From positions 2,016,001 through 2,080,000 of the forward strand of contig CAVSHF010000003.1 in the NCBI GenBank assembly GCA_963727805.1: a stretch of 64,000 nt of DNA, read 5' to 3'. Source of the DNA: an uncultured Nitrospiraceae bacterium. Its GTDB lineage: Bacteria; Nitrospirota; Thermodesulfovibrionia; Thermodesulfovibrionales; Dissulfurispiraceae. The notes beneath the pieces are model-generated. The model had not been told where the DNA came from. It worked only from the letters and a program-made list of their open reading frames with translations, and ran no database searches. Shown here one piece after another: positions 71 through 5,700 of this stretch; position 1 is the first letter of the stretch; the number at the start of each line of letters is the position of its first letter. The position numbers were made by a program, and so were the translations under genes.

Positions 71-712
71 TTAAACCGTCGCCTCCCTACTGAAATCAAA
101 CTCATCCATCCTGATAGAAAGCTCCTGCCAGTTGTATAATTGCAGAGCGCGGGCGAGACTGTCGATCACCCTAGTCCGAACAGCGCGTTCAATTTCCCGC
201 TTGCCGGTAACACCGTAGAAAGGGAGCATGATAGAAAAGGCACTGTTGGTGCAATCACGACGCGGAGACAGCACATCTGATCTTCTCGTATAGTACGGGT
301 CCTCGTCGGCCTCGCAGACTTTGCTGAATACATTGAACTGCCTGCAAGCGATGGGTCGCATCGAATGTATTGAGCAGGTGCCGTCGATCAGAAAGGGACA
401 CAGGTCACCCTTGCGATGATCGAGGAGCCTCTTTTTCAGAATACCGCGTAACGGATGAGGAAGTTTTTCGATGACAAACCAGTAAATCCCGACAAGTTCA
501 AGCGGATATACAGGTATATCACGGTGCGTGGTGCAGCAATTCCCGCAGCCTTTTCCGCACGCAAGCCTTACACCTCTTTTTTTCTCCTCCTCATTGATTG
601 CCGCAGAAACCCCGTTGTCGATCACGGCATAGGCATCTAGAAGCTGAGGAAGCCAGGGTAATCTCTTTTCGTCTTCAGGAAAATGAAGACGAAATGGTGT
701 TTTAGTATTCAT
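71..712 (-). CDS. YkgJ-family cysteine-cluster (zinc/iron-chelating) protein
   Basis: CGKGCGNCC motif, CPFL..GTCSIHSMRPIACRQF motif; ATG at 712 preferred over GTG at 718. Confidence 0.85.
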   Translation of the reverse strand: MNTKTPFRLHFPEDEKRLPWLPQLLDAYAVIDNGVSAAINEEEKKRGVRLACGKGCGNCCTTHRDIPVYPLELVGIYWFVIEKLPHPLRGILKKRLLDHRKGDLCPFLIDGTCSIHSMRPIACRQFNVFSKVCEADEDPYYTRRSDVLSPRRDCTNSAFSIMLPFYGVTGKREIERAVRTRVIDSLARALQLYNWQELSIRMDEFDFSREATV

Positions 713-719
713 AGACACA

Positions 720-884
720 TTATGAGTTGCAGTTCCGTCGTTCTATCAACTTCCAAGTCTCCTCGTCAAACGCATCCCGGTATCCAGTCGGACTATATAT
801 ATGGCCGCACCCCGTGCAGCTTAAGATAACGGACGTTCACCCGACGACTAGACTCAATTTTGCATTGCAGCCTCTGCACCGCAA
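720..884 (-). CDS. small dual-CxxC putative selenoprotein (54 aa, in-frame TGA at 837-839)
   Basis: Manual translation MRCRGCNAKLSLVVG-U-TSVILSCTGCGHIYSPTGYRDAFDEETWKLIERRNCNS*; GGAGG RBS 7 nt before TTG; fills the gap between two same-strand genes; hairpin after the UGA. Confidence 0.75.
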
Positions 885-903
885 ATCAACCCCTCCGGAA
901 TTA

Positions 904-1323
904 TTATTCATCGAATGACTTTATCATAGTCCTCATCCTTTTCTTTACTGCCTGGGCAGCCTTGTCGGCAAGCATCTTCTCTTTTGCCCTTTTCGAGCGC
1001 TTCCGCTTCTGTCGACGGATTTTCTCGATCCTCTGAATCTCGTCGCTCTCCAGACCCCTGATCTTCTGCTCGATCTTCTTCACTAGCCATACGCGGGCAA
1101 AATAACGGTTCATAACCTGAGACCGCTCTCTCTGGCATTTCACTTCTATTCCGGTAGGGACATGCTTAAGATAGACGCATGTTGATGTCTTGTTGACATT
1201 CTGACCACCATGCCCGCCCGAGCGCACAAAGGATTCCTCGATATCAGCCTCGCGGATGTTAAGGGCATCCATCTTAGCCTTAAGGGCTTGTTCCTTTGTA
1301 TTTGTAACGGGGAATATGCTCAT
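904..1323 (-). CDS. RF-1 domain peptidyl-tRNA hydrolase (ArfB/YaeJ-like ribosome rescue factor)
   Basis: [22 protein letters not shown] motif, ERSQ..NR motif, basic C-terminal tail, no codon-recognition domain. Confidence 0.85.
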
Positions 1324-1794: not shown

Positions 1795-2235
1795 ATGGCA
1801 GCTCCAAAAGCACATGCACGAGATCGTGAATTACTTGCTTTGCTCAGAAAATGGAAAGGTGTTGAAGCAAGTACAATTAAAAGCTGTAATGCGATCCTCA
1901 AAAAGGCGAAGAACCCCATCATGATCACCCTGACAACAGCGATCAGAAACGATTCGGAAAAGCATGCGTCGATACTCCAACTAGTCATCGACAGTATGAC
2001 CAAAATGGCTTATGAACTTTCACCTGACGATCTGGCCGGCGTCTCTTCACTGCTCAACAAGCATATCGATCTCGAGCAGGAATCGATTGATACTGCGAAT
2101 AAGGCGATCGAAATGACACGAGATGGCGTCACAAAACAGCTTCTTAAGCTCATTCTCGAAGACGAAAAGAAGCACAAGATGATGGCAACCCGAATGAGCG
2201 AGCTGAAATACAGGATCACCGCAGCCATTCCGTAA
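1795..2235 (+). CDS. ferritin-like/rubrerythrin-superfamily four-helix bundle protein
   Basis: GGAGG RBS; DSEKH and DEKKH E/DxxH-like motifs in repeated helices. Confidence 0.65.
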   Translation: MAAPKAHARDRELLALLRKWKGVEASTIKSCNAILKKAKNPIMITLTTAIRNDSEKHASILQLVIDSMTKMAYELSPDDLAGVSSLLNKHIDLEQESIDTANKAIEMTRDGVTKQLLKLILEDEKKHKMMATRMSELKYRITAAIP

Positions 2236-2245
2236 ATCATCGCAG

Positions 2246-2275
2246 AACGGGGGGCGGTCCTCAAACCGCCCCCGT
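2246..2275 (+). terminator. GC-rich stem-loop downstream of ferritin-like gene
   Basis: acggggggcggt / accgcccccgt inverted repeat; no clear U-tract. Confidence 0.45.
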
Positions 2276-2364
2276 CACAGTCCTGCCTCGTTATTACATG
2301 TATTTCCTCCATCGGTCTATGCTACAATTAATCAACATCATTTCGTTTGGAGAAAAGACCAATT

Positions 2365-3084
2365 ATGTCACACCGACCGCTAGAGATCGATAAAACAGGC
2401 GGCAAGTCCGTCGACCCGCAGGACAACGCTCGGTCTACACAACCCAATCTATCGAACAGCTCCTTCAACAAAGTCTTCGCCGCGTCATTCAAGCAGATGG
2501 AGAATATGCAGGTTGTCTTCAAGAAGAACCTTTTCAGTCCCGCCGTTTCAACCCCCATTCGCTCGGCCCCTGTTCAGACTCCCACAGATTCTGGATTCAA
2601 GGATATCGTCAAGATCGTCATGAAGCACGAAGGCACCGGATACGTCAAGATGGATGGGGGGAAGGAATCTTCGAAGATGGGCATTCTCCAGTCAACCGCT
2701 GGGGAATACGGATATAGGGGTGATATCAGGAATATTTCAAAGGCCGAAGCAGAGGCAATCTACAAGAAGATATGGGACAAATCGGGGGCGGCCAACCTGC
2801 CTTACCCGCTGAGCGTTGTCCATTTCGATACTTATGTAAATAGTCCCTCTGCCGCGAGGAAAATCCTGAATAAGTCAGGTGGCGATATTGATGCCTACCT
2901 TAAGATGAGGGAAGACCGTTTTATTCGACTTGCATCGGCAAAACCCGAGAAATACGGCAAGTATCTCAACGGATGGATTAACCGAGTCAACAGCCTCAGA
3001 TCAGTGGTTACGGAATACGCGATGACGACCGATGCCGCAAAAAGCAAAATGGCTGCTACGACTAATACGCGCACAACCGCATAG
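2365..3084 (+). CDS. glycoside hydrolase family 108-like N-acetylmuramidase with C-terminal PG-binding segment and N-terminal extension
   Basis: KHEGTGY (EGGY-like catalytic Glu), GILQST, AIYKKIWD, HFDTYVNS, KYLNGWINRV follow the GH108 / PG_binding_3 pattern. Confidence 0.7.
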   Translation: MSHRPLEIDKTGGKSVDPQDNARSTQPNLSNSSFNKVFAASFKQMENMQVVFKKNLFSPAVSTPIRSAPVQTPTDSGFKDIVKIVMKHEGTGYVKMDGGKESSKMGILQSTAGEYGYRGDIRNISKAEAEAIYKKIWDKSGAANLPYPLSVVHFDTYVNSPSAARKILNKSGGDIDAYLKMREDRFIRLASAKPEKYGKYLNGWINRVNSLRSVVTEYAMTTDAAKSKMAATTNTRTTA

Positions 3085-3113
3085 TTTCGCCCAGTCCGAC
3101 AGGGGTATCAAAC

Positions 3114-3620
3114 TTAGACTACGATGATATCCAGCCGTTCAGGCCCGTGCACTCCGATCGCAAGTCCAAGTTCCACATCCACGGTACAACTGGGGCCCGT
3201 TATCAATGTTATGTTTGTTGGCATTGATGCCGAATATTTCTTAAAGAAGTCGTCGAGAGTGACGAATATCTTTTCACGGGGAACAATTGCTATATGACGC
3301 GATGGGAGAAGGCTTGCCTGCACGGCCTTCCCACCGCTACTGTCGCAGACAATACTGCCTGTTTCCGCAATAGCGGCGGAAACTTCTTCTACTGTTATCT
3401 TGGCTGAACCGTAATCAGCGACTATTCTAGAGAGCTTGCCTGCTGCCGCCTTTTCGAGCTTCGTCGACCGCGGACAAAAAACCGATGCTCCTTTAGGCAC
3501 TAATTCCAAGACCTTATCCGCCAGCTTTTCCTTGTCTTTTAGCCGACATGCTCCCGCCGCTGCCCTTGCCGCGTTCGCCAAAAAAAGGGATATCTTGTCA
3601 ATCTTTACAATATCGTTCAT
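3114..3620 (-). CDS. lutC: lactate utilization protein C (LUD domain)
   Basis: AIAETGSIV, SLLPSRHIAIV, ITGPS..DVE...AIGVHGP; last gene of lutABC. Confidence 0.85.
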   Translation of the reverse strand: MNDIVKIDKISLFLANAARAAAGACRLKDKEKLADKVLELVPKGASVFCPRSTKLEKAAAGKLSRIVADYGSAKITVEEVSAAIAETGSIVCDSSGGKAVQASLLPSRHIAIVPREKIFVTLDDFFKKYSASMPTNITLITGPSCTVDVELGLAIGVHGPERLDIIVV

Positions 3621-4981
3621 TCCATCCTTCTCCTGAAGGGCATCTTCACCGGCTCAGGAAGTCTTCCGGTGATGTCTTCACCGCCCAAACTGCTCAAGAC
3701 AGGCCAGAATATTTTTGCGAGCCCCTCTCCTGAAGAAAAGAGAAACGGCGATCTTGCAGCCGCCTCAAATACACGCATCCCGAGCTTTTCCTTCACAGGG
3801 GAAAACCCTTCCGAAACCTTCCGCACACGCAGTTTATGAATAAGTTCTACAATTGGTATTTTCACCGGGCAGACATCATCGCAGGCTCCACAGAACGTAC
3901 TCGCACTTACAAGCGGGTGTGAGTTCGCGAGGCCCGTTAGCAGGGTCGTGAGAATTATCCCCATTGGTCCGGGGTATATCCAGCCGTAGGAATCACCGCC
4001 CACAGTGCGGTACACAGGACAGACATTGATGCAGGCCCCGCACTTAATGCACTTGAGAATGTCCCTGCATTCGCCGGCGAGTATTTCCGACCGGCCATTG
4101 TCAAGAAGAATAATATGAAGCTCTCCGGCACCCGTCATCTCACCGTCTTTTCGGGTGCCGGTAATCATCGAAACATAGCTTGTTATCGCCTGACCCGTAG
4201 CAGAACGGGGTAAAAGCCTAATAAAAGCAGGGAGGTCTTTCAGCGAAGGGAGCAGTTTTTCTATCGAGAGCACGGCAATGTGCAGCGCCGGTACCGTCGT
4301 TACCATACGGCCGTTCCCTTCGTTGCTAAACAGGACAAGACTCCCCGTGTCTGCTATTGCAAAGTTCGCCCCCGATATGCCAGCATCGGCACTCAGAAAT
4401 TTCTCACGTAGTACCTTTCTGGCGATCTTCGTAAGGACCTGTGAGTCTTCGGAATATCCGACGCCAAGCTTGTCTGCAAAAAGTCGTCCGACCTGCCGTC
4501 TGCTCTTTTGGATCGCCGGCACGATCATATGGGAAGGAGCTTCGCCCGCCATCTGTAGTATATAGTCGCCAAGGGCCGTCTCGATGACCTCGACGCCCTC
4601 TTTCCCAAGGTACTCATCAAGTTGCATCTCTTCGGAGATCATCGACTTACCTTTCACCACAGTCTTTGCATTATGATCACTGAGTATGTCTACGATAGTC
4701 CTTCGAGCTGCCGCCGCATCAACGGCATGGTGCACAGTCGCCCCAGCCTTCGTCGCATTAGAAGAGAATATGTCCAGATACATCCCGATGTTGTCTAGCA
4801 CATCCTTTCTCACTGCAGATGCCTTTTTGCGAAGCGATTCGAAATCGGCTATTTCGGAAATTGATATGGTCCTCTTTGAGCTGAATGTTCCGGTAGCCGT
4901 CTTCACGACACTGCGAAGGGAAGAATCGGCAATTGCCCTAACGGCATTTGCCCTGAAGTGCAAACTCGTCTGTCTGCTCAT
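3617..4981 (-). CDS. lutB: lactate utilization protein B (LUD plus 4Fe-4S)
   Basis: VKGKSMISEE, EAPSHMIVPA, NEGNGRM, CIKCGACINVCPVY, CGACDDVCPVKIP; ATG at 4981 overlaps the lutA stop (ATGA). Confidence 0.9.
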   Translation of the reverse strand: MSRQTSLHFRANAVRAIADSSLRSVVKTATGTFSSKRTISISEIADFESLRKKASAVRKDVLDNIGMYLDIFSSNATKAGATVHHAVDAAAARRTIVDILSDHNAKTVVKGKSMISEEMQLDEYLGKEGVEVIETALGDYILQMAGEAPSHMIVPAIQKSRRQVGRLFADKLGVGYSEDSQVLTKIARKVLREKFLSADAGISGANFAIADTGSLVLFSNEGNGRMVTTVPALHIAVLSIEKLLPSLKDLPAFIRLLPRSATGQAITSYVSMITGTRKDGEMTGAGELHIILLDNGRSEILAGECRDILKCIKCGACINVCPVYRTVGGDSYGWIYPGPMGIILTTLLTGLANSHPLVSASTFCGACDDVCPVKIPIVELIHKLRVRKVSEGFSPVKEKLGMRVFEAAARSPFLFSSGEGLAKIFWPVLSSLGGEDITGRLPEPVKMPFRRRME

Positions 4982-5700
4982 ATGCCCTCCGCGATAAGCT
5001 CTGCGATGTGTTTTACCCTCACCGCGCTGCCACGCTTCTTCAGTGCATCGGAGATGTTCATCAGACATCCGCAGTCGCAACCAGTCACCGTATCCGCACC
5101 CGTTGAAATAATGTCCGCCGCTTTTTCGTCAGCAAGAGCATAAGAGATTTCAGGCAGCTTTGCCATAAACATACCCCCAAAGCCACAGCAGCGGGTAGCA
5201 TCAGGAAGTGGAACTAGCTCGAGACCCTGCATGGCCTTAAGAAGCACAAGTGGCTCCCTCCGCACTCCGAGCACTCGCGTAAGATGACACGATGGATGAT
5301 AGGTGACCTTTCCGTTTCGAGTAAGATCGGTTTCATGCACACGCAACACGTGGACCAGAAACTGGGTGAGTTCGTAAACTCGACCGGCAACTTTGTCAGC
5401 AACAGCCCGAAGAGTTGTTTTTTCGCGAAAAAACTCGGGGTAACGATATTTGACCATTGCAGCGCACGAACCGGAAGGGGTGACAATAAGGTCGGCTCCA
5501 GAAAATACCGACAGGAAATGCTCTGCCGCGCCCTTCGCCTCTTCATGATATCCCGCATTATAGGCTGGCTGACCGCAGCAGGTCTGCCCTTTGGGGAAAG
5601 AGACATCGACTCCGAACTTGTTGAAAATACGCAACATCGCCTCACCAACTTCCGGGTAAAAAGAGTCTACGAGGCAAGTCCCAAAAAGTTGAATGCGCAT
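4978..5700 (-). CDS. lutA: lactate utilization protein A (two CCG domains)
   Basis: LFGTCLVD, QTCCGQPAYNAG, PSGSCAAM, YHPSCH, CCGFGG, DCGCLMNI. Confidence 0.9.
   Translation of the reverse strand: MRIQLFGTCLVDSFYPEVGEAMLRIFNKFGVDVSFPKGQTCCGQPAYNAGYHEEAKGAAEHFLSVFSGADLIVTPSGSCAAMVKYRYPEFFREKTTLRAVADKVAGRVYELTQFLVHVLRVHETDLTRNGKVTYHPSCHLTRVLGVRREPLVLLKAMQGLELVPLPDATRCCGFGGMFMAKLPEISYALADEKAADIISTGADTVTGCDCGCLMNISDALKKRGSAVRVKHIAELIAEGI

Follow-up and report, generated by a model that had tools for sequence, protein, structure and literature searches.

The locus studied here raises the question whether a small reading frame that is interrupted by a TGA is a selenoprotein gene and, if so, what such a protein could do. 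It covers positions 720-884 on the minus strand of the window, i.e. the whole stretch of 64,000 nucleotides from an uncultured Nitrospiraceae bacterium that was analysed, and represents a tiny gene between an RF-1-domain gene and a CxxCxxCC/YkgJ-type gene (Table 1). The first-pass annotation had described a ribosome-binding site, a TTG start, two CxxC motifs around the TGA, a TAA stop and a hairpin behind the TGA, and every one of these elements was found in its place. A G-rich motif resembling GGAGG also precedes the start in four of the five same-genus orthologues. The reading frame is open from ATG 911 as well, which would give a product of 63 instead of 54 aa; the closest orthologue (L013) has the upstream start only, i.e. 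the counterpart of ATG 911, whereas in the other four a proximal ATG follows the G-rich motif. The start codon of the next gene is GTG 718 or ATG 712, 1-7 nt from the stop of the small gene, and in the same-genus orthologues this stop overlaps the predicted start of the downstream gene. A promoter and terminator scan of the locus returned consensus-level matches only.

Table 1. Features of the selenoprotein locus, in positions of the window.
Feature	Position	Strand	Remarks
Upstream neighbour, 139-aa RF-1-domain (ArfB-like, GGQ) protein	904..1323	-	Pfam PF00472, 85 bits; below every NCBIfam cut-off
Possible 9-codon N-terminal extension from ATG 911	885..911	-	overlaps the stop of the upstream gene
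Shine-Dalgarno-like GGAGG	892..896	-	sequence; spacer of 7 nt to TTG
Dual-CxxC (seleno)protein gene, 54 codons, NF041197 member (almost certain)	720..884	-	TTG start 884-882, TAA stop 722-720
First CxxC (C3, C6)	867..878	-	invariant, 61/61 full-length rows
In-frame TGA, codon 16, predicted selenocysteine	837..839	-	TGA in 60/62, TGC in 2/62 homologues
SECIS-type hairpin, 7-bp stem, GGG loop at +24 to +26	804..820	-	overlaps the codons of the second CxxC
Second CxxC (C23, C26)	807..818	-	invariant, 61/61 rows
Downstream neighbour, YkgJ-type CxxCxxCC protein	71..718	-	Pfam PF03692, 26.7 bits, cut-off 23

The TGA is not a sequencing error, since it is also present in two assembled contigs from sequencing runs. 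One of them (run X1, possibly the source sample) spans 389-948 with zero differences, and the other (RNA-library run X18) spans 804-954 with two differences, neither of them in the TGA. Part of the gene is represented in contigs from the RNA libraries X18 and X19, although contigs of this kind cannot prove transcription. In the further surroundings, about 4-6 kb ahead of the window (L039:1-1768), a resolvase gene precedes a Cas12f/TnpB-like gene, an arrangement reminiscent of an IS607-type element. Inside the window, there are genes for a ferritin-like protein (1795-2235) and a glycosyl hydrolase 108 protein (2347-3084), and a three-gene LUD/4Fe-4S/CCG set (3114-5700), which we take to be LutABC-like lactate utilisation genes. 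No link between these genes at 1795-5700 and the selenoprotein was seen.

The machinery for selenocysteine (Sec) incorporation is complete in this organism. Its genome (100% complete) contains selA, selB, selC (tRNA-Sec) and two selD genes, all scoring over the respective cut-offs, and both selD genes carry an in-frame TGA themselves. In-frame TGA codons with a hairpin were also noticed in three formate-dehydrogenase-type genes (C3:1813008, 770582 and 499185, minus strand) and in two MvhD/FlpD genes (C3:2180413 and C5:930831, plus strand); the genome has a large selenoproteome.

The homologues carry either TGA or a cysteine codon at position 16. Searching with the single protein gave 60 matches in 53 of 61 genomes of the organism and its relatives, each with one TGA. 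A family model applied to 251 genomes of the same phylum found 123 places in 117 genomes, 119 of them with one stop and four with none. The stop is TGA in 118 of the 119 cases, the exception being one weak match with TAA, and two of the four stop-free places are full-length with TGC at the site. Two weak 31-residue matches inside long frames were dropped, which leaves 115 own-phylum carriers, and 110 of these possess selA. Database homologues of at most 120 residues with a matching spacing pattern number 66, of which 61 have Cys, four Trp and one Arg at position 16; the four Trp are probably TGA codons called under code 4. Moreover, the coding sequence behind the UGA is under constraint. The six window-type copies show a pN of 0.14 and a pS of 0.69 after the UGA (15 pairs), and a pN of 0.14 versus a pS of 0.84 after the SECIS, with W44, Y35, D40 and R50 among the conserved residues. 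The TGA is kept in all six, with synonymous sites near saturation. The suggestion of the first-pass annotation that this UGA is read as Sec is thus borne out by the complete Sec machinery and by the TGA or Cys codons at position 16, and the comparison of homologues makes it almost certain that we are dealing with a real Sec-recoded gene.

The assignment of the product to a protein family is equally firm. With U read as C, it scores 47.2 bits (E 1.8e-12, profile positions 1-51 of 53) against NCBIfam NF041197, for which the curated cut-off is 40 bits; in the genome search, with the stop scored as a stop, the score is 36 bits. The residues C3, C6, U16, C23 and C26 align without gaps with 30 homologues and match the family spacing CxxC-x9-U/C-x6-CxxC. 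The protein is a stand-alone one of 54 or 63 aa with an acidic helical tail, and full-length database matches mostly have 54-80 aa. The small dual-CxxC (seleno)protein family invoked in the first-pass annotation therefore exists and the product passes its curated cut-off, so that there is next to no doubt about the membership. The family entry (NF041197.2, CxxC_Se_CxxC, 'dual CXXC motif small (seleno)protein') shares with the window copy the size, the CxxC spacing, the acidic helical tail and a predicted SECIS just 3' of the UGA. The window copy differs in having Thr after the Sec instead of Arg/Lys, in being without the usual Pro and the terminal Arg-Ala/Val, and in its placement between an RF-1-domain and a YkgJ-type gene.

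Hence, the gene adds a slightly divergent new member to a family that is itself not new: it was published in 2007 and has a curated NCBI entry. A table in a 2026 review equates NF041197 with OS_HP3 and lists a representative with the motif RxU, whereas the window copy has VGU (PMC13188914). The 2007 report of OS_HP3 presented it as a new selenoprotein on the basis of two sequences, with no Cys homologue in that data set (PMC1976440). The review table also places under NF041197, with the motif GxU (PMC13188914), 'Hypothetical protein DW', which was described from Desulfosarcina in the deep-Sep work (PMC12013277); it is likewise a predicted selenoprotein with Cys homologues, and the likeness is one of family listing. 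In the titles and abstracts found, the OS_HP3 papers are computational studies or reviews, and experiments on any NF041197/OS_HP3 member did not turn up there. The family is neither named in the main text of BSepDB nor mentioned in the available passages of the Haft and Gwadz preprint.

The poor visibility of the family in databases agrees with the expectation that gene callers miss this gene, as TGA-type relatives appear in protein collections mostly as fragments of 32-38 aa that start after the TGA. A word-indexed search with the single protein gave no match, and an alignment-based search gave six, four of them 32-aa fragments. Pfam yielded no match over the cut-off for the selenoprotein. 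Two other affiliations were considered and rejected. The similarity to ribosomal protein S27e is weak (NF001629, 16.2 bits against a cut-off of 70, E 0.0055), and a thioredoxin-fold redox selenoprotein of the CxxU/UxxC type does not fit, because Sec16 lies 10 and 7 residues from the nearest Cys and no thioredoxin-family match was obtained.

The genome holds a second member of the family 150 kb from the window copy. This canonical copy (G000:C3:1867136-1867300; L038:5137-5301, minus strand) is flanked by a Cys-rich gene in divergent orientation, which had no Pfam or NCBIfam match, and by a gene for a YacP-like NYN RNase. The window copy and five others, all from the same genus, form a long branch (length 1.18, support 100/99) that is separate from the canonical copies of the same genus in a tree of 52 columns, in which the deeper forks are unresolved. 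The window copy is off-consensus at T17 (found in 1 of 61 rows, with Arg/Lys in 50 of 61) and at G34. The order RF-1-domain gene, selenoprotein gene, YkgJ-type gene is confined to the six genomes with these copies, and both neighbours occur elsewhere without the selenoprotein. By tree and gene order, the window gene appears as a divergent second paralogue, seen only in this genus. We rejected both a functional link with the RF-1-domain gene upstream, which adjoins the selenoprotein gene in 6 of 30 loci, all of the window's genus, and an obligate tie of the window copy to the downstream YkgJ gene, of which none of the 19 orthologues outside the genus adjoins a selenoprotein gene. At the level of titles, a functional study on YkgJ was not found. 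As a separate observation, three relatives have an RF-1-domain (ArfB-like) gene about 4-5 kb from selA (G015:C1, G027:C3 and G034:C39, L113).

In bacterial recoding, SelB and Sec-tRNA act via the loop of a SECIS hairpin. The hairpin of the window gene begins 16 nt past the UGA, with 820-814 pairing with 810-804 around a GGG loop at 813-811. Compared with shuffled sequence, its z-score is -2.28 in a segment of 28 nt, 0.20 and 0.02 in segments of 50-57 nt, and +1.42 in one of 76 nt. The hairpin alone is no more stable than chance except in the narrowest segment, and the support for it comes from conservation. The stem cells are paired in 94% of cases versus 20-50% when the partners are slid (31 sequences), a percentage that is weak by itself because the stem overlaps conserved Cys codons. 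More telling is the choice of these codons: after removal of one spurious row and two duplicates, TGC encodes C23 in all 62 rows and C26 in 60 of them, in comparison to only 43 of 63 counted rows for C6. Likewise, synonymous divergence (pS) among 59 TGA rows is 0.16 in the hairpin codons versus 0.74-0.83 elsewhere. Folding energies also separate the two Cys forms (-2.7 kcal/mol) from the 59 canonical TGA forms (-6.9 to -16.9 kcal/mol). Loci of the Desulfobulbales type (the best 80 of 240 in a ranking against a Cys query) have Cys in 80 of 80 cases, fold at about -5 kcal/mol on average and show relaxed codons. The TGA copies are not uniform, however, as a divergent subgroup of them (L072, L248-L254) folds weakly in the same segment (-3.3 to -6.2). 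Furthermore, seven other TGA-bearing genes of the genome were folded, of which two have a G-bearing loop at +24 (mvhD and an fdh-type gene), three have one at +18 to +20 and two are less clear. Judged by these codon comparisons, the hairpin is under selection.

An AlphaFold2 model from 31 sequences (pLDDT 82.9) predicts strands at residues 9-14 and 19-23 and helices at 32-38 and 41-50. Residue 16 is predicted to sit where a turn joins the two strands, at a distance from the CxxC knuckles; given this position in the secondary structure, it is probably exposed and no metal ligand. A four-cysteine zinc-ribbon fold is very likely on this prediction. The fold searches pointed to zinc ribbons without a significant match, all scores being at background (Foldseek E at best 0.065; VIA Z at best 3.4, with an rmsd of 3.2 over 40 residues). 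The top weak matches are RPB9/TFIIS-type ribbons, ZifS, and the N-domains of MqsA and NrdR, and Rieske-domain fragments are also among the weak matches. An atlas search with a natural Cys homologue found the same family and generic zinc ribbons. The RPB9/TFIIS-type ribbons and ZifS of T. thermophilus (PDB 8yoz) resemble the predicted fold in the four-Cys ribbon and the beta-hairpin, at an E of 0.065 or worse and a Z of at most 3.4. A literature search on ZifS returned materials papers only. We know of no ribbon of the RPB9/TFIIS type or ZifS with a Sec at the hairpin tip. The C-terminal half of the protein is acidic and conserved (E/D-Y-x-D-E-x-D-E-E). A C-terminal Cys as general resolving residue was rejected, because it is found in only 44 of 61 rows and is missing from the Desulfobulbales-type alignment.

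The distribution of the family follows dsrA closely. In the own phylum, 113 of the 115 carriers have dsrA, and none of the 104 genomes without both selA and dsrA carries the gene. Seven genomes there are selA-positive and dsrA-negative; five of them are without the gene, and of the remaining two, one carries it in the Cys form and the other in the TGA form. A second sample came from Desulfobacterota, the phylum to which a Desulforhopalus genome belongs, and consisted of 251 genomes, with up to 25 candidates scored per genome. All 59 genomes with a match are among the 131 with dsrA, and none is among the 120 dsrA-negative ones. Pooling the two phylum samples, 172 of 174 carriers possess dsrA. 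The gene is not required for Dsr, since many dsrA-positive genomes are without a match: at least 59 of the 131 dsrA-positive Desulfobacterota have one, which is fewer than half, and it is found in no genome of family f19, in which dsrA is present in eight of nine genomes and selA in none.

The gene neighbourhoods give a more mixed picture. In the Desulfobacterota sample, 5 of 72 places lie less than 6 kb from dsrA. Two of the five immediately precede dsrA-dsrB and two adjoin dsrP, while in the fifth a single gene separates the copy from a dsrP-like gene. These copies (L235-L239; genomes G307, G495, G519, G345 and G376) belong to a divergent TGA-bearing subgroup and are all divergently oriented from genes of the TPR type and of the DVU0298 family; because of this shared neighbour they probably go back to one event, and related copies do not count as independent. 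We inspected these five places and 15 more of the 27 places below the cut-off; all 20 show the motif with TGA, and six of seven scanned pass the cut-off after read-through. Of the 37 own-class loci, 19 have a CxxCxxCC gene as immediate downstream neighbour, and four of the 20 Desulfobacterota loci have one immediately upstream; the two neighbour types are 33% identical. A gene for a Mrp/NUBPL Fe-S-carrier-like protein is directly upstream in 4 of 20 Desulfobacterota loci and in L072; the one scanned reached 422 bits against a cut-off of 450. The divergent TGA subgroup L250-L253, together with L072, sits between such a Mrp/NUBPL-like gene and a phosphoglycerate-mutase-like gene. Most neighbourhoods consist of unrelated housekeeping genes. 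The gene follows aspS in 24 of 24 f21 loci and pyrE in 69 of 80 Desulfobulbales-type loci (again the best 80 of 240), and 25 other loci have mixed neighbours. Neither copy in the genome of the window is near its dsr cluster, which is on C5. Two further observations concern single loci and neighbours. Genome G212 has three copies (L052, L111 and L112), each after aspS; with 6% contamination, it probably represents mixed strains. An unnamed family of about 180 aa with a Cys-rich motif (L031:899-1429; L038:5360-5908) is encoded divergently before the canonical gene in 18 of 37 own-class loci and had no meaningful Pfam or NCBIfam match.

What the protein does has to be read from this context. The function that we favour over its rivals, with a probability of just under 0.4, is that of a dispensable accessory helper, acting in redox reactions or sulfur handling for Fe-S proteins of sulfite-respiring (Dsr) bacteria. 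By analogy to established bacterial recoding, SelB with Sec-tRNA would bind the hairpin loop at +24 and decode the UGA. The resulting four-Cys zinc ribbon, with an exposed selenol at Sec16, would serve iron-sulfur proteins as a redox or sulfur-handling helper, and the two acidic helices after the ribbon are predicted to form a docking surface. Alternatively, the real selenoprotein could have a regulatory role, in which its zinc ribbon would contact nucleic acid, RNA polymerase or the ribosome and the Sec would act as redox switch. Such a role is suggested by the best structural neighbours (RPB9/TFIIS-type ribbons, ZifS, MqsA and NrdR N-domains), by the weak S27e match and by frequent neighbours from translation and RNA handling (aspS, the RF-1-domain protein, the NYN RNase, hflX and an RNase II-type gene). 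However, all fold scores are at background, the acidic and conserved C-terminal half would make a poor nucleic-acid surface and the restriction to dsrA genomes is left unexplained, so that we regard it as rather unlikely. A role as metal carrier or as one-iron electron carrier similar to rubredoxin, in which the Sec/Cys would provide an additional site for soft metals or for electron entry, would accommodate the four invariant Cys in two CxxC pairs, the Rieske-domain fragments among the weak fold matches and the Fe-S and metal genes in some neighbourhoods (for instance Mrp-like, feoB, Fur and those of molybdate-type binding proteins). But the model puts the Sec in the hairpin turn away from the knuckles and the metal-gene neighbours are scattered single cases, which makes this function unlikely.

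Two other explanations deny the window copy an ordinary protein function. It could mainly be a cis-acting, selenium-sensing leader in which read-through couples translation to the downstream YkgJ-type gene. The tight packing of the two genes, with overlap in the same-genus orthologues, would suit such a device, as would the loss of the basic residue after the Sec and of the conserved terminal motif. The strong conservation of amino acids after the SECIS is not expected for a leader and most family members are without a coupled downstream gene, hence we consider it quite improbable. That the gene is a nonsense pseudogene or a decaying duplicate, with UGA as a plain stop, might be read from its long branch, its several off-consensus columns and the canonical copy in the same genome; it is hardly credible in view of the TGA kept in all six copies, the purifying selection past it, the intact hairpin and the Sec machinery.

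Returning to the favoured role as accessory helper, a more specific version of it can be formulated for the whole family. NF041197 might be an unrecognised accessory component of dissimilatory sulfite reduction, confined to dsrA genomes and in one lineage built into the dsr cluster, namely a Sec/Cys zinc ribbon which services DsrAB, DsrC or Fe-S partners (YkgJ-type, Mrp-type) and which was duplicated in this genus with a different active-site surround and partner. We put this forward as a doubtful yet possible proposal, and the co-occurrence with dsrA may only be a mark of an anaerobic lifestyle. A dsr link of NF041197 was not found in the publications covered here.

As annotation, the present case is correct yet routine, in that it recovers a gene missed by gene callers, and its useful part concerns the family, which has been without a function since 2007. 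It also offers a clean case of dual coding, in which the SECIS is written in the CxxC codons and decays once the UGA becomes a Cys codon. Since the gene occurs in a Cys form among Desulfobulbales-type and other sulfate reducers, knocking it out needs no selenoprotein expression.
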